A stretch of DNA of 56,594 bases. Source: Flavobacteriales bacterium (lineage in GTDB: Bacteria; Bacteroidota; Bacteroidia; Flavobacteriales; BACL11). The notes beneath the pieces are model-generated. The model had not been told where the DNA came from. It ran no database searches and saw only the letters and a program-made list of their open reading frames with translations. Positions 1 through 33,442 of the stretch are shown here, in pieces; position 1 is the stretch's first letter, and each line of letters starts with the position of its first letter. The position numbers and the translations under genes are program-made. The stretch is taken from positions 1-56,594 of the forward strand of contig DASCPP010000071.1 of the NCBI GenBank assembly GCA_036012565.1, given 5' to 3'.

Positions 1-832
1 TAGTGGAAATGTTGGTGTTTAAAACATCTATAAGCATAGTATCTGAATGAAGCTGACCAATACTATCAGTAATTACTCCTGCTACAAAAGTAGATTGAGT
101 GGGGGCGTAAAAAAGGGTGTCTCCACCACCTATCATCTGGCCAGTACTTACATCATACCAATTTACACCACCTCCTGTAAGTATATGCACTCTACCTATT
201 TGTCCTGTAGTTCCTAAAAAACTGCCAGGTGGGGCAACCCCACCCGCTAAAACACTTTGATAGTACAATCTATTTAATTGTGTAGGATTGCCATCAATAA
301 TTACATTAGCTCCAGCAGTAGCACTATAAGAATTATAAACCTGTCCAGAGGATCCTGCTCCAGCCAGATGTCTTGCGCCAATTACACCATAATATTGCCC
401 GGAATCAATGCTTATATTACATAACATATAATTTGATGTAGAATCGTCAATTGAAGAAAAAAGAGTTGAAAAAGAAACCCCAGTAGTTGTTGGCGGATAG
501 GAGTTCCAAACTCCACCTAGAGAATCGCCAAATATCACAAACTGAACAGATTGATTATATCCAGGGCCTGAATTTTCAGTAGCACACATTAAGCCAGTAA
601 TAATAAATGAAGATTGAGCCTGAAAATGAAACCCTCTAGTAAGAGTTGATGTAAAATTTGAAGCATGAACTCCACATATTACAGTATCCATACCAGCACC
701 TTGACTTCCTCCTTGTAATGATGCAATTACCTCTGCTGTATCATTTAAGCATATAGTTTGATCATTTCCAACATTAATTTGTCCATATCCAATAATTGGC
801 AAGCAAAATAATATTATTAGTAGTTTTTTCAT
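1..832 (-). CDS. Secreted protein of unknown function, 3' end beyond the window (not in the ORF track); possible T9SS/surface protein
   Basis: Hand translation: ATG at 832, MKKLLIILFCLPIIGYG|QINVGNDQTICLNDTAEV..., no stop through position 2 (277 codons); Sec signal peptide followed by Gln; Gly/Thr/Ser-rich. Confidence 0.85.
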   Translation of the reverse strand, partial: MKKLLIILFCLPIIGYGQINVGNDQTICLNDTAEVIASLQGGSQGAGMDTVICGVHASNFTSTLTRGFHFQAQSSFIITGLMCATENSGPGYNQSVQFVIFGDSLGGVWNSYPPTTTGVSFSTLFSSIDDSTSNYMLCNISIDSGQYYGVIGARHLAGAGSSGQVYNSYSATAGANVIIDGNPTQLNRLYYQSVLAGGVAPPGSFLGTTGQIGRVHILTGGGVNWYDVSTGQMIGGGDTLFYAPTQSTFVAGVITDSIGQLHSDTMLIDVLNTNIST

Positions 833-834
833 AA
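787..834 (-). repeat. Dispersed repeat copy 1: signal-peptide-encoding leader (MKKLLIILFCLPIIG)
   Basis: 43/48 nt identical to 32346-32393 by manual alignment. Confidence 0.85.
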
Positions 835-851
835 TGCTAAAGTATGAAAAA

Positions 852-880
852 AGTCAGGATGAGAGGACTTGAACTTCTCT
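852..880 (-). other. tRNA-Pro-like 3' fragment (T-arm, acceptor 3' strand, discriminator); not a complete tRNA
   Basis: Minus strand AGAAG-TTCAAGT-CCTCT-CATCCTG-A-CT: T-loop, 4/5-bp T-stem, acceptor strand complementary to CAGGATG (C1:G72, A73 typical of tRNA-Pro); no D or anticodon arm. Confidence 0.7.
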
Positions 881-883
881 ACT

Positions 884-1471
884 TTATAAATCTCTCATAA
901 ATTGTTTTGAAATATATTTCCCTAAAATATCATACTCAATATTCACTACCATTCCTACTTCAAATGTGAGGAAATTAGTATGCTCAAAAGTATAAGGAAT
1001 TAAAGCTACTGAAAAAGAAGTATCTTTGGAATTAACAACTGTCAAACTTACCCCATTTACACAAACTGAACCTTTTTCCACCGTCATATTATCGGATTCC
1101 TTGTGCTTAAAAGTAAACACATAAGAACCTTTCTCTTCTTTAATTTCAGTGCATTTTGCAGTTTGATCCACATGACCTTGTACCATATGTCCGTCCAATC
1201 TATCACCTAATTTCATGCACCTTTCCATGTTTACTTTACTTCCTACATTCAAAAGTCCAAGGTTTGATTTATCTAACGTTTCCTTAATGGCAGTTACCAT
1301 ATAGTTATTGCCATTAATATCAACTACTGTTAAACAAACCCCATTATGCGCCACAGATTGATCAATTTTCAACTCTTTTGTAATGTTTGATTTTAAGGTA
1401 ATATTTAGATTACTCCCTTCATCTTCAACTTTAACAACCTCAGCTATTTGCTCAATTATTCCTGTAAACAT
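884..1471 (-). CDS. ribE: Riboflavin synthase (alpha chain)
   Basis: MFTGII N-terminus; two lumazine-binding repeats (NGVCLTV / NGVSLTV); GHMVQGHVD. Confidence 0.96.
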   Translation of the reverse strand: MFTGIIEQIAEVVKVEDEGSNLNITLKSNITKELKIDQSVAHNGVCLTVVDINGNNYMVTAIKETLDKSNLGLLNVGSKVNMERCMKLGDRLDGHMVQGHVDQTAKCTEIKEEKGSYVFTFKHKESDNMTVEKGSVCVNGVSLTVVNSKDTSFSVALIPYTFEHTNFLTFEVGMVVNIEYDILGKYISKQFMRDL

Positions 1472-11034: not shown

Positions 11035-12369
11035 ATGTTTAAAAAGATATTAATTGCCAATAGAGGCGAGATTGCATTGAGGGTTATCAGAACCTGTAAG
11101 GAAATGGGTATAAAAACGGTTGTGGTTTACTCCAAAGCGGATGCCGATAGTTTGCATGTTCGTTTTGCGGATGAGGCAGTTTGTGTTGGGCCTGCCCCAA
11201 GTGCAGAATCCTATTTAAAGATTCCAAATATTATTGCCGCTGCAGAAATCACTAATGCAGATGCCATCCATCCTGGTTATGGTTTTTTGGCTGAGAATGC
11301 TAATTTTTCCAAAATTTGTGCTGAAAATGGCATCAAATTTATTGGAGCATCTCCACGTATGATTAAAAACATGGGAGATAAAGCGTCTGCCAAAGAGACC
11401 ATGAAAAAAGCAGGAGTTCCTACAATCCCTGGATCAAAAGGACTTATTAAAAATTTCGAAAGCTGTAAAAAATTAGCAAAAGAAATCACTTATCCAGTAA
11501 TGCTAAAAGCAACCGCAGGTGGTGGTGGAAAAGGAATGCGATTGGTTTGGGAAGAAGAAAATTTACTTGATGCCTGGAATAGTGCAAGGCAAGAGTCGAA
11601 AGCTGCTTTTGGGAATGATGGCATGTACATGGAAAAATTCATTGAAGACCCAAGGCATATTGAAATTCAAATAATTGGTGATAGCACAGGAAAAGCATGT
11701 CATCTTTCGGAAAGAGATTGTTCTATTCAAAGAAGACATCAAAAATTAATGGAAGAAACCCCATCTCCTTTTATGACTAAAAAATTGAGAAAAGAAATGG
11801 GAGAAGCTGCTATAAAAGCGGCTGAGGCAGTAAAATATGAAGGGGTAGGAACAGTAGAATTTTTAGTAGATAAGCACAGAAATTTTTACTTTATGGAAAT
11901 GAATACGCGTATTCAAGTGGAGCATCCCATTACAGAAGAGGTAATCAATTACGATTTGGTACGCGAGCAAATAAAGGTGGCTGTTGGCATTCCTATTTCA
12001 GGGAAAAATTACGAACCTCAACTTCATGCTATTGAATGCAGAATAAATGCAGAAGACCCTTATAATGATTTCCGACCAAGCCCTGGAAGAGTAACTAATT
12101 TTCATACTTCTGGGGGGCACGGCATACGAATAGACACCCATGTATATGCTAATTATACAATACCATCTTATTACGATTCCATGATTGTAAAACTGATTGC
12201 TGTTGCCCAAACAAGGGAAGAAGCCATTGCAAAAATGGAGAGGGCTTTGGAAGAATTTATTATTGAAGGGGTAAAAACAACCATTCCATTTCATCAAGCA
12301 CTGATGAAAGATGAGAATTTCCGAGCAGGAAAGTATACCACTAAATTTATGGAAGATTTTGAGTTGTAG
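11035..12369 (+). CDS. accC: Acetyl-CoA carboxylase biotin carboxylase
   Basis: [44 protein letters not shown]. Confidence 0.97.
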
Positions 12370-27965: not shown

Positions 27966-28026
27966 TCACTACTCTTATCTATTATAGTAACTTTGCAAAA
28001 AATAATTCCACAAAAGGGATCCCCTT

Positions 28027-29286
28027 ATGAGATTTGAAGATTTAAACTTACACCCAACTTTACTAAAAGCGGTTAAATACCAAAATTATACTACTCCAAC
28101 CGCTATTCAAGAGCAAGCAATTCCCTTATTATTAAGAAAAAATGACGTACTTGGTAGCGCACAAACAGGAACTGGAAAAACAGCCGCTTTTGCTTTGCCT
28201 ATTTTACATCATCTGATAAAAGAAAAAAGCAATAATCATAAAACAAAAGTAAGAGCCTTGGTAGTTACGCCAACTCGTGAATTAGCCATACAAATTGGAG
28301 AGAATTTTACTGCTTATTCAAAATACAATAACATAAAGAATACTGTAATTTTTGGTGGAGTTAAACAAGGCACCCAAACCAATGCACTTAATAATGGGGT
28401 TGATGTATTAATTGCAACTCCTGGTAGATTATTGGACCTTATGGGACAAGGTTTTATCTCTTTAAATGATATAGGATATTTTGTATTAGATGAAGCGGAT
28501 AGAATGTTAGATATGGGTTTTATTCATGACATTAGAAAAATATTGAATGAATTACCAAAAGAGCGTCAATCTTTATTCTTTTCGGCTACTATGCCTAAAA
28601 ATATTGTAGAGCTTTCATCTCAAATATTGAAATCTCCAAAAAAGATATCTGTTAGTCCTGTATCTTCAACTGCTGAAACTATTAAACAGTTTATTTACTA
28701 TACGAATAAGGCAGATAAAAAAGATTTGTTGCTATATATCTTAAAAGACAAAAACATCAATCAATTATTGCTGTTTTCAAGAACTAAGCATGGTGCCAAT
28801 AGGATAGCTCGTAATTTAAAAAAGAAAAATATTCAGGCCGCAGCAATTCATGGAGATAAACCCCAGAATCAAAGACAAAAAGCATTACAATCCTTTAAAG
28901 ATTCCAAAATACGAGTTTTAGTAGCTACTGATATTGCTGCTAGAGGCATTGATATTGATAAGCTGAGTTATGTACTGAATTATGATATCCCTAATGAGTC
29001 AGAAACGTATGTACACAGAATAGGAAGATGTGGTAGAGCAGGAGAGACGGGAGTTTCTATTTCTATTTGTGAGCCAGAAGAAAACGCATATGCTAAAGAT
29101 ATTGAAAAGTTAATAAAGCAAAAAATTGAAGCAGTTAAAAACCATCCTTTTCCTCAAACGGACAAACCTATGAATGCACAGCAGAAGAAAGAATTTGAGA
29201 AGGAAAAACAGAGAAGGAGACAAGAATTTTTTGCTAATAGAAATAAAAAGCGGAATGCTGGAAAATCTAATTCCAGAAACAAATAG
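28027..29286 (+). CDS. rhlE: DEAD-box RNA helicase (RhlE-like)
   Basis: Q motif, AQTGTGKT, PTRELA, TPGRL, DEAD, SAT, ARGID, HRIGR. Confidence 0.9.
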   Translation: MRFEDLNLHPTLLKAVKYQNYTTPTAIQEQAIPLLLRKNDVLGSAQTGTGKTAAFALPILHHLIKEKSNNHKTKVRALVVTPTRELAIQIGENFTAYSKYNNIKNTVIFGGVKQGTQTNALNNGVDVLIATPGRLLDLMGQGFISLNDIGYFVLDEADRMLDMGFIHDIRKILNELPKERQSLFFSATMPKNIVELSSQILKSPKKISVSPVSSTAETIKQFIYYTNKADKKDLLLYILKDKNINQLLLFSRTKHGANRIARNLKKKNIQAAAIHGDKPQNQRQKALQSFKDSKIRVLVATDIAARGIDIDKLSYVLNYDIPNESETYVHRIGRCGRAGETGVSISICEPEENAYAKDIEKLIKQKIEAVKNHPFPQTDKPMNAQQKKEFEKEKQRRRQEFFANRNKKRNAGKSNSRNK

Positions 29287-29361
29287 GAGGTAATTTTTTC
29301 GTATTCAAATTACAGGTATAAGAATTAAATTGATATTTTCGACATCAATTAAAATATATAT

Positions 29362-31494
29362 ATGCATAGAATAATTCTTTTTTCAGCAACCTTATTGTTG
29401 CTAATGTCTTGCAATTCTCATCAGCAGATAGACTATCCTATAACAGATAAAATAGTAGTAATAGACACTTATTTTGAAACTCAAATAGAAGACCCTTATC
29501 GTTGGCTAGAAGATGATAAAGATAAAAAGGTAAAGCAGTGGATTGAAAGTCAGAACCAACTTACTTTTTCTTATTTAGATGAGATTCCTTACCGAGAAGC
29601 TCTCAGAAATAGACTTGAAAAATTATGGAATTATGAAAAAATAGGGACGCCATTTAAGGAGGGGAATTATACCTATTTCTATAAAAATGATGGACTACAA
29701 AATCAATCTGTTTTGTACAGAAAAAAGGGGGACGATAATGAAGAAGTTTTTATCAATCCAAATATTTTCTCGGAGGATGGAACAGTTTCATTAGGAGGAA
29801 TGAGCTTTACAAAAGATGGAAGTTTATTAGCGTACTCTATCTCAGAAGGTGGTTCAGATTGGAGAAAAGTAATGGTAATTGAAACCGAAACAAAAAAAAT
29901 AATTGAAGATACCTTGGTAGATGTGAAGTTTTCTGGAATAAGTTGGAATGGGAATGATGGCTTTTATTATTCTTCTTACGACAAACCCAAAACCTCAGTT
30001 TTATCCGAGAAAACGGATAATCATAAATTGTACTATCACAAATTAGGCACTCCTCAGCAAGCCGATAAAGTTATTTTTGGAGATGGTAAAGATGAAAAAT
30101 TCAGGTATGTAAGTGGCTATATTACAAAGGATAAGAATTACCTTATTATTAGTGTATCAAAGGAAACCTCAGGGAATAATCTGTTTATAAAAAATCGAAA
30201 TAAAGAAAATTCGGAGCTCATTCAAATTACTGATGATTTTACAAGCAACAGTTATATTGCTCATAATATAGGGAGTAAATTATACATCATAACTAATTTA
30301 GATGCCCCAAATAAGAAAGTAATTACGGTAGATGCTAGTGCTCCTCAAACAAATAATTGGGAGGAATTTATTAAGGAAACGGAGGATGTTTTGAACGTTT
30401 CAAAAGGTGGTGGATATTTCTTTGCAAAATATTTTATTGATGCAAACTCAAAAATAATACAATATGATTATACAGGAAAATTAATCAGAAATGTAGTATT
30501 TGAAAATGAAGGAAATGTAAGTGGTTTTGGTGGTAAGGAAGAACAAAAAGAAATCTACTACAACTTTAGTAATTATACTACTCCCCGTTCTTCTTTCAAA
30601 TACAATGTTGAGGAAGGAACATCAGAATTGTATTGGGCACCAGAGATTGATTTTAATGCGGAATTATATACTTCTGAGCAGATTTTTTATCCATCAAAAG
30701 ATAGCACAGAAATTCCGATGACTATAACTTATAAAAATGACTTAGTATTAAATGGAAAAACCCCAACGATATTGTACGGATATGGAGGGTTTAACATCAG
30801 TATAAAACCATCCTTTAGTGTGAAGAATGCGATTTGGTTGGAGCAAGGCGGAATTTATGCAGTAGCAAATATAAGGGGTGGTGGCGAATACGGAAAAAAG
30901 TGGCATGATGCTGGGACTAAAATGCAAAAGCAAAATGTTTTTGATGACTTTATTGCGGCAGCAGAATTTTTGATTGAAAAGAAATACACAAGCTCCGATT
31001 TTTTAGCAATAAGTGGAAGGTCAAACGGTGGGCTTTTAGTGGGGGCTTGCATGACACAAAGACCAGATTTAATGAAGGTGGCACTTCCTACAGTTGGCGT
31101 TTTTGATATGCTCCGTTACCATATATTTACAGCTGGGGCAGGTTGGTCTTATGATTATGGGACTTCAGAAGAGAGTAAAGAAATGTTTGAATATCTGAAG
31201 AATTATTCTCCAGTACACAATGTAAAAGAAAATGTAGCATATCCTGCAACCATGGTCTTTACTGGCGATCATGATGACAGGGTTGTTCCTGCGCATAGTT
31301 TCAAATTTTCTGCTCATTTACAAGATAAACAAAGTGGCAAAAATCCAACTTTAATTAGAATAGAAACCAATGCAGGACATGGAGTTGGAACCCCAATTAG
31401 CAAAAGAATTGAAGAAATTGCTGATGTGTTTGGGTTTACGCTTTACAATATGGGATTTGAAAATTTACCGGTTGAGTTGGGGAAACAGGATTAA
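29362..31494 (+). CDS. Prolyl oligopeptidase (S9A), lipoprotein
   Basis: LMS|C lipobox, DPYRWLED, GYGGF, GRSNGG (Ser), DDRV (Asp), AGHG (His). Confidence 0.94.
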   Translation: MHRIILFSATLLLLMSCNSHQQIDYPITDKIVVIDTYFETQIEDPYRWLEDDKDKKVKQWIESQNQLTFSYLDEIPYREALRNRLEKLWNYEKIGTPFKEGNYTYFYKNDGLQNQSVLYRKKGDDNEEVFINPNIFSEDGTVSLGGMSFTKDGSLLAYSISEGGSDWRKVMVIETETKKIIEDTLVDVKFSGISWNGNDGFYYSSYDKPKTSVLSEKTDNHKLYYHKLGTPQQADKVIFGDGKDEKFRYVSGYITKDKNYLIISVSKETSGNNLFIKNRNKENSELIQITDDFTSNSYIAHNIGSKLYIITNLDAPNKKVITVDASAPQTNNWEEFIKETEDVLNVSKGGGYFFAKYFIDANSKIIQYDYTGKLIRNVVFENEGNVSGFGGKEEQKEIYYNFSNYTTPRSSFKYNVEEGTSELYWAPEIDFNAELYTSEQIFYPSKDSTEIPMTITYKNDLVLNGKTPTILYGYGGFNISIKPSFSVKNAIWLEQGGIYAVANIRGGGEYGKKWHDAGTKMQKQNVFDDFIAAAEFLIEKKYTSSDFLAISGRSNGGLLVGACMTQRPDLMKVALPTVGVFDMLRYHIFTAGAGWSYDYGTSEESKEMFEYLKNYSPVHNVKENVAYPATMVFTGDHDDRVVPAHSFKFSAHLQDKQSGKNPTLIRIETNAGHGVGTPISKRIEEIADVFGFTLYNMGFENLPVELGKQD

Positions 31495-31509
31495 AATAGG
31501 ATCTATTTT

Positions 31510-31617
31510 TTACTTACCCATACCACTAAAACCACTACTAAATACAACCATTAAAAGGGTGAAAGGTACTGCTGCATTTAAGGTGTTTTTATCGATATTA
31601 TCCATATCATTTTAATG
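31510..31617 (-). pseudogene. Diverged duplicate of the 3' end of the M28/glutaminyl cyclase gene
   Basis: 31572-31617 matches 32497-32542 at 38/46 nt; translates DMDNIDKNTLNAAVPFTLLMVVFS versus DMDNIDRETLNAVGQTLMEVIYS. Confidence 0.75.
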
Positions 31618-32391
31618 ACTATGAGAATGACCATCACCATGGGAATGTTCATGCTTACTATTGTCTGATTTAATGAGTGGTTCATTTTTTAATTCCTGTG
31701 GGGCTAATTGATGTTGATGATGACCATGGTCAATAAAATAGCCATTAACTTGATAAGCTAATAAAACAATACCTGCTACAACTAATATCCCATTTGATAT
31801 TTTGGATATTATATCAAAAGACTTTCCTCTAAGCAATGAAAGTAGTGGGAAAACGATTATTAATACGGCTATTTGCCCAAATTCCACCCCTACATTAAAA
31901 GACAATATTTGAGATAAAGACAAATTAATACCTGAAGCAACTGCTACTTCTTGTAGTTTTGTTGATAAGCCAAAGCCATGAATTAATCCAAATATAAAAA
32001 CCATTAAAATTAAATTTGGAGGATTAACAGAAAAATACTTTTTAAAACCATCCAGATTTTCAAATCCTTTATAGACAACACTGAATGCAATTACAGCATC
32101 AATTAAATACGTATTTACTGTAATACCATAAAAAGTGGCAAAAACAAGCGTGATACAATGCGCAATTGTAAAGGCAGTTATAAATTTAAAAATATCAGAA
32201 TAGTTACTAAGAAAAAACACAACTCCAATTAAAAATAAAATATGATCATATCCTGTAAGCATGTGCTCTGCACCAAAATAAATAAAATCCATTAATGAGG
32301 CATCAGCCATAGCATCAATTATTGATTTTGAAACGCCATGAGTCCATCCAATAATTGGTAAGCAAAGTAATATGAATAATAGTTTTTTCAT
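31612..32391 (-). CDS. HupE/UreJ family membrane protein with His-rich tail (putative Ni/Co handling)
   Basis: GAEHMLTGYDHILF, FTIAHCITL, FGLIHGFG, FNVGVEFGQ; tail HEHSHGDGHSHSH; start moved to ATG 32391. Confidence 0.88.
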   Translation of the reverse strand: MKKLLFILLCLPIIGWTHGVSKSIIDAMADASLMDFIYFGAEHMLTGYDHILFLIGVVFFLSNYSDIFKFITAFTIAHCITLVFATFYGITVNTYLIDAVIAFSVVYKGFENLDGFKKYFSVNPPNLILMVFIFGLIHGFGLSTKLQEVAVASGINLSLSQILSFNVGVEFGQIAVLIIVFPLLSLLRGKSFDIISKISNGILVVAGIVLLAYQVNGYFIDHGHHQHQLAPQELKNEPLIKSDNSKHEHSHGDGHSHSH

Positions 32392-32393
32392 AA
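32346..32393 (-). repeat. Dispersed repeat copy 2: signal-peptide-encoding leader (MKKLLFILLCLPIIG)
   Basis: 43/48 nt identical to 787-834. Confidence 0.85.
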
Positions 32394-32434
32394 GAGCAAA
32401 CTTACAGAAAATTATGGGAAATATGAAGAAAAAA

Positions 32435-32458
32435 AGTCGGGGTAGCAAGATTCGAACC
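32435..32458 (-). other. tRNA-Pro-like 3' fragment abutting the M28 gene stop; not a complete tRNA
   Basis: Minus strand GG-TTCGAAT-CTTGC-TACCCCG-A-CT: canonical T-loop, acceptor 3' strand complementary to CGGGGTR, discriminator A. Confidence 0.78.
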
Positions 32459-33442
32459 TTATTCAGAATAAATAACTTCCATTAAAGTTTGCCCAACTGC
32501 ATTCAATGTTTCTCTATCAATATTATCCATATCATCTTTATGGGTGTGCCAATGTTTATTAAAATTGCTTTCAGTAGAAGGGTCATACTCAATAATATCA
32601 ATAGTAGGGATTCCGGTAATTTGATTTACATACAAATGATCATCAACAATTTGTTTGGCATTTTCAAATACAAAATAATTCCCAAAGCCTAATTTGTGTG
32701 CTTTACGCCATACTTTTTGCAAAATATTTGAGCCATAATAAAAAGAAATCTCCTCATGCCTAAAAGTAGCATTCTTTGCCCCAACCATATCTAGTAAAAT
32801 TCCGTAACGAGCAAAATAGTTTTGTTTATGAGGATTATTACTCCAATATTGCGAACCCAAACACCAAGAATCTTGCATAATAGGATATTTTGAATTTTCT
32901 GGCTGGCCATAATCTTCTGCATCAAACAATATAATGTCGACTCCAATTTTTGGGTTTTTTAAACTGAATTGTCTTGCCAATTCAATTAGAACTCCAACAC
33001 CGCTTCCACCATCATTTGCTCCTAAAATAGGGGAGTTCTGATTTTCTATATCATGATCGGCAATAGGACGAGTATCCCAATGTGTAAAAAGAGCAATTCG
33101 ATTGTTTTTGTCAGGAGAAAAAGAAGTAATAATATTTCTCAGAGTATGATTTTTACCATCATAAGTAGTGACAGAAGCTTCTTGTACTACAACATTTGGA
33201 GTATAGGTTTTAAATTTAGTTACTAACCAAATAGCACAATTTTCCCATCCTTTACTGCTTAAAGCTCTGGGGCCAAAACTCACTTGTTTTTCAATAAAAT
33301 AATAAGCAGAATCCACATTAAAAGTGGGCACTACAACCTTTACCTTTGGTTTTTTAGAACGTGTTTTTTGTTGAGGATCACTTGTACAGGCGCCGATACA
33401 AAGGACAGTAATTAGTAAAAACTTGTATCTAAAACCAGTCAT
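32459..33442 (-). CDS. M28 family lipoprotein, glutaminyl-peptide cyclotransferase-like
   Basis: Lipobox IGA|C, QVSFGPR, HWDTRP, GANDGGSG, FDAEDYG, LLDMVG, DDH, WHT. Confidence 0.88.
   Translation of the reverse strand: MTGFRYKFLLITVLCIGACTSDPQQKTRSKKPKVKVVVPTFNVDSAYYFIEKQVSFGPRALSSKGWENCAIWLVTKFKTYTPNVVVQEASVTTYDGKNHTLRNIITSFSPDKNNRIALFTHWDTRPIADHDIENQNSPILGANDGGSGVGVLIELARQFSLKNPKIGVDIILFDAEDYGQPENSKYPIMQDSWCLGSQYWSNNPHKQNYFARYGILLDMVGAKNATFRHEEISFYYGSNILQKVWRKAHKLGFGNYFVFENAKQIVDDHLYVNQITGIPTIDIIEYDPSTESNFNKHWHTHKDDMDNIDRETLNAVGQTLMEVIYSE

Follow-up and report, generated by a model that had tools for sequence, protein, structure and literature searches.

In the T-loop class of attachment (att) sites, the block of identity extends from the T-arm or T-loop of a tRNA to its discriminator. 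A CIME is a piece of DNA without an integrase that lies between att sites belonging to an integrase-bearing element and can be stacked in tandem beside that element. Much of the strain-level diversity of streamlined marine bacteria lies in small flexible regions, and to our knowledge the route by which genes enter and leave these regions is largely unknown outside Prochlorococcus. Islands placed in tRNA genes by tyrosine integrases carry a displaced tRNA 3' fragment as their far direct repeat, as laid out for Islander (PMC4383910). The tycheposons of Prochlorococcus are presented as tyrosine-recombinase elements at tRNA genes, with neighbouring elements separated only by a partial tRNA, scattered partial tRNAs as remnants of older insertions, and adaptive cargo (bioRxiv 10.1101/2020.12.28.424599). 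CIMEs and tandem accretion at the att sites of ICEs and IMEs are treated in PMC7563491 and PMC5704250, and the account of putative mobile promoters in PMC3575422 concerns highly similar upstream regions that precede unrelated genes, both in one genome and across genomes.

The window analysed here, the whole of a 56,594-nt stretch from a Flavobacteriales bacterium (contig DASCPP010000071.1), contains two tRNA-Pro fragments, copy 1 and copy 2. Both are probably att junctions of a mobile-element family whose tyrosine integrase targets the 3' end of tRNA-Pro. As in the islands of the Islander account, the fragments are near-exact tRNA 3' ends that start in the T-arm, and relatives show, in this order, the tRNA gene, the integrase, the cargo and the displaced fragment. 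Unlike those islands, the window fragments adjoin neither a tRNA gene nor an integrase and follow the stops of housekeeping genes, and the sites behind an M28 peptidase gene and an sdhB-like gene recur across genera. The setting resembles that described for tycheposons in being a streamlined marine genome whose relatives have a recombinase at a tRNA gene, tandem elements split by partial tRNAs, scattered partial tRNAs, and cargo of the adaptive kind. It differs from that description in phylum, in the tRNA-Pro target, in integrases with a Bacteroidetes-type arm-binding domain, and in units that can be sub-kilobase and integrase-less, with a conserved arm of ~120 nt.

tRNA-Pro cores in the window and the genome

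The features of the two loci, all on the minus strand, and the two tRNA-Pro genes of the source genome are as follows (related genomes are numbered G, contigs C).

884..1471 (-), resident gene ahead of copy 1, riboflavin synthase (ribE)-like by the ORF list
853..880 (-), copy 1 core, tRNA-Pro(GGG)-like, 28 nt: T-arm-like part, acceptor 3' strand, discriminator + C
833..852 (-), copy 1 short arm: T6 at 847-852, -7-like box at 837-844, ATG at 832
787..832 (-), leader of cargo gene 1 (MKKLLIILFCLPIIG), signal peptide
2..832 (-), cargo gene 1, predicted exported protein, truncated by the contig start
32459..33442 (-), resident gene before copy 2, M28 peptidase (PF04389, E 1.3e-34)
32436..32459 (-), copy 2 core, 3' 24 nt of tRNA-Pro(TGG)
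32392..32435 (-), copy 2 arm: T7 and a 37-nt promoter-like module, ATG at 32391
32346..32391 (-), leader of HupE (MKKLLFILLCLPIIG), replaced relative to orthologues
31612..32391 (-), cargo gene 2, HupE/UreJ-type membrane protein (PF13795, E 4.6e-50)
31497..31611 (-), decayed second M28 3' end (last ~95-115 nt), directly past the HupE stop
31476..31496 (-), candidate decayed second core, a weak match of 16/21 to the tRNA-Pro(TGG) 3' end, counted on the alignment
C144, c125-200, tRNA-Pro(GGG) gene
C79, c2149-2224, tRNA-Pro(TGG) gene

Located 0-3 nt past the stop codons of the resident genes, as a preliminary description from sequence had stated, are the two cores. The first base of the copy 2 core is the last A of the M28 TAA (32459-32461), and the copy 1 core begins 3 nt past the ribE-like TAA (884-886). 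That description had also guessed at two tRNA-Pro isoacceptors, and the genome's own tRNA-Pro genes bear this out: the last 21 nt of the copy 1 core match the 3' end of tRNA-Pro(GGG) at 18/21 positions (0 of 100 shuffles of the window; over the last 17 nt, 15/17), and the copy 2 core matches the 3' 24 nt of tRNA-Pro(TGG) at 23/24 (E 8e-5), its 21-mer at 20/21 (shuffles 0/100). A profile of GGG-type modules scores the copy 1 core at E 1.5e-9. ARAGORN finds no tRNA gene in the window, and copies 1 and 2 are therefore fragments.

As a control, the whole genome was scanned with the 3'-terminal 17 nt of all 31 tRNAs, allowing up to two mismatches. Only tRNA-Pro yields 3'-end copies outside its genes, three of the TGG type and six of the GGG type; the remaining hits are three tRNA-Ser genes that match one another and a single two-mismatch tRNA-Phe hit. 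The profile search adds a seventh GGG-type copy on C115, bringing the genome to 10 tRNA-Pro fragments in 1.56 Mb. All TGG-type copies, three in this genome and five in four relatives, start at the T-arm GGTT and end at the discriminator + C, the common start being expected if the crossover falls in the T-loop. The window copies combine tRNA 3' identity with, in the TGG type, a sharp edge in the T-arm and, across relatives, empty and filled states.

Each fragment might instead be the remnant of a resident tRNA-Pro gene, once complete at that locus, whose 5' part has been lost. The fragments do lie in the tRNA sense orientation, and a T-run also follows intact tRNA-Pro genes in relatives. This explanation is scarcely credible, given an identical breakpoint in all copies, a distribution in which two tRNA genes account for all 10 copies and the remaining 29 tRNAs for none, arms of non-tRNA sequence that are common to the copies, and empty ribE|purT junctions (described below) that leave no space for a tRNA gene.

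Arms, promoter-like boxes and leaders

Between each core and the start codon behind it is a short arm with a T-run and a putative promoter. In copy 1 the box matches TAnnTTTG at 7/8 positions, 4 nt upstream of the ATG, and the same layout of T6-7, a 13-14-nt spacer containing the box, and ATG follows GGG-type cores in G001, G006 and G007. The copy 2 module has a perfect TAnnTTTG box at 32397-32404, also with a putative promoter role; it recurs in the source genome at C6 (91%) and C36 (89%) before unrelated genes, and the arm is common to cassette junctions of G004, G018, G031, G033 and G040, again with unrelated genes behind. We infer that boxes of this type are active promoters.

A homologous copy 2 module, of putative promoter activity, before non-homologous genes is what the mobile-promoter account describes. 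The tRNA piece could be a passenger, without a part in recombination at these two loci, of a strong reused promoter that once lay beside tRNA-Pro and was copied ahead of other genes by homologous or illegitimate recombination. The same upstream module before unrelated genes, the TAnnTTTG box 4-5 nt before the ATG, the lack of a dedicated integrase in the genome and the homologous exchange seen within the HupE leader all agree with this, and promoter reuse as such is already published (PMC3575422). We nevertheless regard a passenger role as unlikely. The TGG-type piece, 32-55 nt ahead of the box and beyond a core promoter, nonetheless keeps its sharp 5' edge; integrase islands have their crossover at this very core, the M28 site included; and the ~120-nt cassette arm of the relatives has no promoter logic for the gene behind it. 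In contrast to the mobile promoters of that account, the region shared here is tied to an att core and has, in full units, a far arm as its partner, which supplies a concrete mechanism for its spread.

The position of the pieces, 0-3 nt past stops and ahead of a T-run, would also suit punctuation at the RNA level, with the tRNA-like piece and T-run acting as a terminator or as an RNase P/Z-type processing site between genes; the T-arm-like hairpin retained in the GGG-type copies after ribE fits this as well. It is a very unlikely reading on the structural evidence. The predicted folds of the two window modules are not more stable than those of shuffles (-4 and -3 kcal/mol, z +0.69 and +0.46), and the TGG-type fragments have neither a 5' T-stem nor an acceptor 5' strand. 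No covariation is seen in the conserved class-i arm, and no Rfam family was found: apart from a genuine tRNA-Asp and a snoRNA match due to chance, a search of 10 repeat loci with E up to 1 gave nothing. In an RNA library, one contig of 326 nt spans M28, fragment and HupE, which is weak evidence against such punctuation because DNA can occur in these libraries. Separately, the class-i arm was considered as a small structured RNA and dropped (RNAalifold of 12 arms, -8 kcal/mol, 0 compensatory pairs).

The signal-peptide leaders of the two cargo genes are identical at 43/48 nt, exactly as first reported, and their codon choice is conserved position by position. The leader was not, as had been proposed, a module-specific part. 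Of 12 ORFs with MKKLL.IL.C.P in the source genome, 10 have no fragment upstream, and 7 of the 10 fragments have no leader ORF behind them. The leader is a separate, lineage-wide sequence, frequent in cargo genes, that is enriched behind fragments and not bound to them. The 64 non-tRNA cores listed include a few loci that are entered twice. In 42 of them an ORF of 45 aa or more begins no further than 110 nt away; 32 of these 42 are signal-peptide-like by a crude rule and 21 start with M[KR][KN][LI][LI], for comparison with 18 ORFs genome-wide that start with MKK[LI][LI] and four hydrophobic residues. Nor does the module form the single portable piece of ~100 bp that had been envisaged, since an att junction consists of core and element arm, and full cassettes add a far arm of ~120 nt.

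The ribE and M28 loci in related genomes

Relatives differ in filled and empty states at both loci, a comparison that the preliminary description had put forward as a check. In five of eight related copies (G007 twice, G004, G005 and G006), the ribE stop is followed directly by a purT-like gene, forming an empty site, and one of these ribE copies is 98% identical to that of the window; the junction is thus empty in most congeners. A GGG-type piece follows ribE in the source genome, G001 and G008, with different genes behind each; the three pieces differ among themselves, and the ribE-adjacent copies retain a T-arm-like hairpin. Cargo gene 1 has no Pfam family, and its orthologues in G001, G007 and G004 (86-90%) stand behind a different gene, without a fragment. 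The far end of copy 1 runs off the contig start. Neither an integrase island at any GGG-type core nor a dedicated GGG-core integrase was found, so copy 1 is assigned by analogy and by arms that also occur at TGG-type sites. In G006 and G008, the gene natively next to tRNA-Pro(GGG) encodes a protein of 936-954 aa, and its source-genome orthologue (C63) has no fragment before it.

At copy 2, colinearity with G001, G004 and G007 extends over the M28 gene and the DNA upstream of it. The M28 stop of G004, a genome without window positions 27966-32459, is joined to position 27966, which places a synteny break at the 5' edge of the fragment. In G040 there is no fragment between M28 and HupE, and in G007 no more than a stub; HupE may thus have come by homologous recombination through M28 and not through the integrase. 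The gene is a mosaic, with a mature part close to that of a congener and a leader like those of unrelated genes: positions 46-600 match HupE of the congener G007 at 546/555 (98%; flanks 81-85%), and leader positions 16-45 match it at 20/30, against 26-27/30 for leaders of unrelated genes in the source genome.

Past HupE, the decayed M28 3' end (tblastn, 42% identity over 52 aa) is nearer in its first 40 nt to the G007 M28 allele than to that of its own genome. After it comes the candidate second core, in the same order as at copy 2; it falls below the 3-mismatch search threshold and overlaps the last codons of a plus-strand ORF (29362-31494). No intact second direct repeat bounds the insertion at copy 1 or copy 2.

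The M28-fragment-HupE arrangement is near-identical in 15 DNA runs from 11 studies, so it is stable and not visibly active. Contigs of three RNA runs and one DNA run across window positions 31300-33000 showed no joints, starts or ends, though such contigs drop rare forms; the stretches left uncovered by the RNA runs in this interval are uninformative.

Integrase islands and cassette arrays in relatives

The tyrosine integrase that was reported missing from the window is indeed absent there, and none dedicated to the element is present in the source genome, which has only two Xer-sized PF00589 proteins of 303-304 aa. MAGs often lack islands of this kind, and the failure of an island integrase to find a match in any of the five genomes of the genus searched is therefore weak evidence either way. 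A 357-aa integrase on a 1.5-kb contig (G007:C8) was set aside as a candidate, with 24% identity to the island integrase.

Arrays and an integrase beside an intact tRNA-Pro gene, suggested earlier as things to look for, are present in relatives of other genera. In G012, a 396-aa integrase gene lies behind tRNA-Pro(TGG), with type I R-M genes and then a 23-nt direct repeat after it, a layout shared by G033, G048 and G040; the island integrases carry PF17293, PF13102 and PF00589. The tRNA-Pro(TGG) locus is filled in G048 and empty on C79 of the source genome, and the downstream flank is common to both.

Islands and cargo also occupy the partial-tRNA sites outside tRNA genes. Following the M28 stop in G031 is the same core as in copy 2, at a place where ARAGORN finds no tRNA, and behind it are an integrase-side arm, a 414-aa integrase, a Dcm-type methylase, GmrSD, and arm + core. 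The sdhB-like site has the core in three genera with differing cargo: a CN_hydrolase in the source genome (C36), HupE in G013 and two exported-protein cassettes in G031. Late dispersal of units into core operons, as had been supposed, does not describe these places, since the post-M28 and sdhB sites are partial-tRNA docking sites common across genera. The element cargo seen here comprises R-M, Dcm, GmrSD, TonB-type receptors and exported proteins.

In other genera, an intact tRNA-Pro(TGG) and integrase island are followed by arrays of 0.36-1.5-kb units. Each unit consists of an arm (~120 nt) and a tRNA piece (23 nt), then a promoter-like module ahead of an ORF for an exported protein. Co-oriented core arrays are found in G033 (three units), G031:C30 (six cores in 5.1 kb), G040, G004:C90, G001 and G006. 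Two integrase-less units lie between cores in G033, one of 357 bp with a 50-aa ORF and one of 718 bp with a 171-aa ORF; G031 and G004 have further arrays of such units. The ~120-nt arm is conserved over at least six genera in alignment. Within the window, it gave one 3-mismatch hit of a 16-mer, no more than shuffles give.

On the att-junction reading, a tyrosine integrase would insert elements in the 3' end of tRNA-Pro, between T-loop and discriminator, and in this bacterial family cores of 23-24 nt would have become fixed outside tRNA genes, after the stops of M28 peptidase, sdhB-like and ribE-like genes, where they would serve as secondary docking sites. Each window copy would be a left junction made of resident gene, core, short arm (T-run and TAnnTTTG-type box) and first cargo gene, the last predicted to encode an exported or membrane protein. 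The DNA behind a core is flexible across relatives, being different genes, an integrase island or nothing, and at copy 2 recombination would have joined arm and leader to a HupE gene that had itself been exchanged recently, the crossover falling where the leader ends. Both window copies would then owe their origin to integrase action and may still be usable as docking sites.

The relatives' integrase-less units between cores (G033, G031, G004) are like CIMEs, of which the window units show the left junction only. They differ from CIMEs in being far smaller (357 bp at minimum, in G033), in opening with a promoter-like module and in holding mostly one exported-protein gene; their mobilisation is putative. 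Small, co-oriented, mostly single-gene units with a recurring recombination site, and with content that varies among relatives, also recall integron cassettes. Here, unlike in integrons, the site is a tRNA 3' fragment with an arm and probably no attC hairpin (folding does not set the window modules apart from shuffles, and the class-i arm has no supported helix), the units bear their own promoter-like box, and the enzyme beside the arrays of G033 and G040 is an island-type integrase next to a tRNA gene. Neither an IntI-type integrase nor an attI/Pc platform was seen in these two arrays or in the source genome.

The preliminary idea of a cassette system survives in its tRNA-Pro att cores, in the arrays and integrase of relatives, in the empty and variously filled sites at both loci and in the promoter-leader fused to HupE; leader specificity, the ~100-bp unit and dispersal are not supported as proposed. 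We tentatively raise, as a possibility short of probable, that the family runs an integron-like cassette system on a tRNA-Pro-specific integrase, in which sub-kilobase integrase-less cassettes are moved in trans and the leader is a second handle. In such a system a cassette would comprise a promoter-bearing arm, one exported-protein ORF and the ~120-nt arm; insertion, stacking and swapping would take place at tRNA-Pro genes and at seed sites after housekeeping genes; and the near-invariant leader would fuse promoter and leader to new genes, as at HupE.

The docking sites can be read from sequence, as a 23-nt tRNA-Pro piece reused across genera, also far from tRNA genes, and behind the cores are short units with putative promoters whose products are mostly surface or secreted proteins. 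Should the units prove to be mobile in trans, they would offer a simple route for shuffling cell-surface and transport genes in abundant ocean Flavobacteriales, and the cores would serve as a practical marker of flexible genes in fragmented metagenome assemblies.

A promoter-like TTG/TAnnTTTA pair precedes the class-i arm. Scanning viral contigs for exact patterns of this arm and of the GGG module gave 0 hits each. Among species-representative genomes an exact 23-mer of the arm occurs in eight stretches on seven contigs of five MAG records, which are labelled uncultured Flavobacteriales or Weeksellaceae; this shows no more than a narrow distribution of the arm.

Fragments of two tRNA-Pro genes

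Heading flexible DNA in the window are two pieces of tRNA-Pro 3' end, best explained as att junctions of a family of integrase elements that target tRNA-Pro. The source assembly (1.56 Mb, 152 contigs, 33% G+C; the window is its contig C71) is referred to here as G000. G001 and G004-G008 are related genomes, mostly of the same genus, and G012, G013, G031, G033, G040 and G048 represent other genera. Features at the two junctions are as follows.

884-1471, minus strand: ribE-like ORF; its TAA stop is followed by 3 nt and then copy 1
853-880, minus strand: copy 1, a tRNA-like piece of 28 nt, followed by T6, a -7-like box and the ATG at 832
832 (ATG), minus strand: exported-protein ORF behind copy 1, running past the contig end
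32459 (end of stop codon), minus strand: M28 peptidase (PF04389) preceding copy 2
32436-32459, minus strand: copy 2, a 24-nt copy of a tRNA 3' end, its first base being the last A of the M28 stop codon
between the copy 2 core and ATG 32391, minus strand: T7 and a 37-nt module with a perfect TAnnTTTG box, which we take to be the Bacteroidetes -7 promoter box
32391 (ATG), minus strand: HupE/UreJ protein (PF13795) behind copy 2

ARAGORN called no tRNA gene in the window and 31 in the genome, including tRNA-Pro(TGG) on C79 and tRNA-Pro(GGG) on C144. Copy 2 matches the last 24 nt of tRNA-Pro(TGG) at 23 positions and copy 1 the last 21 nt of tRNA-Pro(GGG) at 18; neither pattern was matched in any of 100 window shuffles. 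When the last 17 nt of each of the 31 tRNAs were searched genome-wide with up to 2 mismatches, extra 3'-end copies were found for tRNA-Pro only, three of TGG type (C6, C36 and C71) and six of GGG type (C3, C9, C14, C17, C71 and C126), the other matches being those of three tRNA-Ser genes to one another and one tRNA-Phe at 2 mismatches. A profile search added a GGG-type copy on C115. The two-copy layout set out in the preliminary description was borne out in every detail, including the two tRNA-Pro isoacceptors and the identity of 43/48 nt between leaders. Elsewhere in the genome, ARAGORN called a tRNA with anticodon CTA (labelled Pyl; C149:3858-3934), perhaps a miscall, perhaps an amber suppressor.

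Integrase islands and docking sites

In G012 an intact tRNA-Pro(TGG) is followed by an island with an integrase of 396 aa, genes for type I restriction-modification and two others; the island closes with a direct repeat (23 nt) of the tRNA 3' end, which begins at the same GGTT. G033, G048 and G040 share this layout. The island integrases are composed of an arm-binding, a SAM-like and a catalytic domain (PF17293, PF13102 and PF00589). The tRNA-Pro(TGG) locus is filled in G048 and empty in G000, and its downstream flank is the same in both. The basic mechanism is the textbook one of tRNA-targeting islands, in which a displaced tRNA fragment marks the island end (PMC4383910). At a contig end in G012 (L028:994-1297, on C22), an intact tRNA-Pro(TGG) stands with an inverted arm plus core and an identical downstream flank, probably an assembly fold-back that links a single site in its empty and its filled state.

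These islands explain the flanks shared by the fragments of G000. Common to its three TGG-type copies are about 45 nt after the core (89-91% identity), and common to four GGG-type copies are about 95 nt before it, referred to here as the class-i arm (C3:50-153, C17:18765-18868, C115:309-412 and C126:683-786; variant at C9, ~11050-11140). This arm is non-coding, nearly invariant within the genus, preceded by a promoter-like TTG/TAnnTTTA pair and always ends in a GGG-type core; it gave no Rfam match and no covariation. In G040 and G012, islands that bear an integrase have a related class-i-like arm as their far end. In class iii, found in the window's genus, the cassette arm described below is joined to a GGG core.

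Partial-tRNA cores also recur after housekeeping genes. In G031 the same core directly follows the M28 stop, where ARAGORN calls no tRNA, and behind it lie, in order, the arm of the integrase side, an integrase of 414 aa, genes for a C-5 methylase and a GmrSD-type nuclease, a further arm plus core, and CN_hydrolase. The partial tRNA after M28 has therefore served as a docking site. At this site G007 retains a stub, the first five letters of the core fused to the T-run, and in eight other relatives unrelated sequence follows the M28 stop. The G004 stop codon is joined to the equivalent of window 27966, which places a synteny break at the 5' edge of the fragment.

After an sdhB-like gene, the core occurs in three genera with different cargo in each: C36 of G000 carries CN_hydrolase, G013 has HupE, and G031 holds a pair of cassettes for exported proteins. 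The ribE stop is followed immediately by a purT-like gene (as at L057:175-1340) in five of eight related copies, one of which, on a G007 contig, shares 98% identity with the window as far as the stop codon. A GGG-type piece occupies the ribE site in this genome, G001 and G008, with different genes behind it in each; in G001 further cores form an array there. Neither G000 (99% complete by markers) nor G001 yielded a purT gene, and in G008 it is located elsewhere than ribE. In G001, G004 and G007, the gene orthologous to the exported protein of the window lies behind another gene, without a fragment.

Cassette arrays and the shared leader

Beyond the islands are arrays of co-oriented cores spaced 0.36-1.5 kb apart: three units follow the island in G033, the smallest being 357 bp with a 50-aa ORF, six cores lie within 5.1 kb on G031:C30, and similar arrays occur in G040, G004:C90, G001 and G006. 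Each unit consists of core, T-run, promoter-like module, ORF and an arm of ~120 nt, which is conserved over at least six genera and holds a direct repeat of a 9-mer. Most unit ORFs have a signal peptide, and judged by sequence their ends often look like a type IX secretion (T9SS) sorting domain.

Two more decayed cassette arms lie in G000 at C86:10531-10604 and C35:24457-24525, one of them still attached to a truncated TGG-type core. In G006 (L034:2770-11548, on C62), a 4382-bp unit is repeated in tandem, with its boundaries at GGG-type cores; it includes two arms and the genes for a T9SS-tail protein, a TonB-type receptor and a lipoprotein. The repeat reflects either true duplication at the att cores or an artefact of assembly. 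Behind tRNA-Pro, or behind the final core of an array, the gene usually present encodes a small membrane protein, without a Pfam family, whose signal peptide ends ...NVSYASFP and which has a conserved palindrome-containing module just upstream (G000:C144:1-124, L088:2594-2995, L014:364-714, L102:7743-8126 and L105:3650-3997).

The start MKKLL.IL.C.P is found in twelve ORFs of G000, the same twelve by nucleotide or protein-pattern search: those at 832 and 32391 in the window, and C18:10171, C21:41387, C21:41632, C54:6108, C67:4664, C72:841, C101:4661, C121:11005, C122:8554 and C149:1778. Otherwise unrelated, they have a signal-peptide leader of 36-45 nt in common, including unusual codons position by position: CTA encodes Leu-4 in all twelve but makes up 10.6% of Leu codons across 673 long ORFs. 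The resemblance therefore lies in the DNA itself. Across genera of the family the leader recurs in many genomes at 84-91% nucleotide identity; gene conversion, repeated fusion and selection on mRNA are candidates for what keeps it alike.

The leader is enriched behind tRNA fragments: an ORF starting M[KR][KN][LI][LI] begins within 110 nt behind 21 of 64 non-tRNA cores, a list that counts a few places twice, and 18 ORFs in the whole of G000 start MKK[LI][LI] plus four hydrophobic residues. The C17 fragment precedes an MKKLLL start broken off by the contig end. Among the twelve leader ORFs, only the two window genes have an upstream tRNA piece. The cassette interpretation proposed earlier is partly supported. 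In place of one portable 100-bp leader, the evidence points to an att core with an element arm, often but not invariably carrying the lineage-wide leader.

No attC-type site or IntI platform was seen, and the system is therefore probably not an integron. Among systems described from streamlined marine genomes, the tycheposons of Prochlorococcus come closest. It differs from them in targeting tRNA-Pro, in partial-tRNA cores that recur behind housekeeping genes as docking sites common to several genera, in very small units that lack an integrase but have a promoter-like module of their own and a long conserved arm, and in cargo sharing a DNA-level leader. A limited literature search found no description of this combination of cores, docking sites, small units and leader in Flavobacteriales.

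HupE mosaicism and present activity

HupE of the window is a mosaic. Its nt 46-600 agree with G007 at 546 of 555 positions, whereas its flanks are 81-85% identical and the sequence past the stop codon is unrelated. Leader nt 16-45 match G007 at 20/30 positions and the leaders of five unrelated genes of its own genome at 26-27/30. It follows that a recently exchanged HupE gene acquired its arm and leader by a crossover at the leader end. The mature part (window 31612-32345 against L002 on G007:C74) is ~98% identical, G040 has an 87%-identical protein, and HupE looks recently exchanged across species.

After the HupE stop, the final ~100 nt of M28 recur in decayed form, followed by a weak core-like 21-mer (31476-31496; 16/21), an arrangement that would fit a Campbell-type insertion. 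HupE is patchy in the family: among five further genomes it was found in G040 alone, where it likewise lies behind M28 but without any fragment. This keeps alive the alternative that HupE itself arrived by homologous exchange via M28.

The genome has two tyrosine recombinases, both Xer-sized. Relatives of the island integrase occur in 9 of 41 family genomes (6 of 16 genera) and in none of the five genomes searched in the window's genus, where other PF00589 matches are few and those looked at unrelated. Fifteen marine DNA runs from 11 studies contain the M28-fragment-HupE arrangement, with 97-100% of the sampled words present. Together, the Xer-sized enzymes, the missing integrase and this stable arrangement speak against current activity here. 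A 326-nt contig from an RNA library, a type of library that can contain DNA, runs from M28 through the fragment into HupE and hints at read-through.

On the opposite strand, the last eight codons of a plus-strand ORF (29362-31494) overlap the same decayed tRNA-Pro-like piece at 31476-31496. This ORF reads like an S9 prolyl oligopeptidase, and because its G004 orthologue has a different end, the att remnant may have reshaped the 3' end of the gene.
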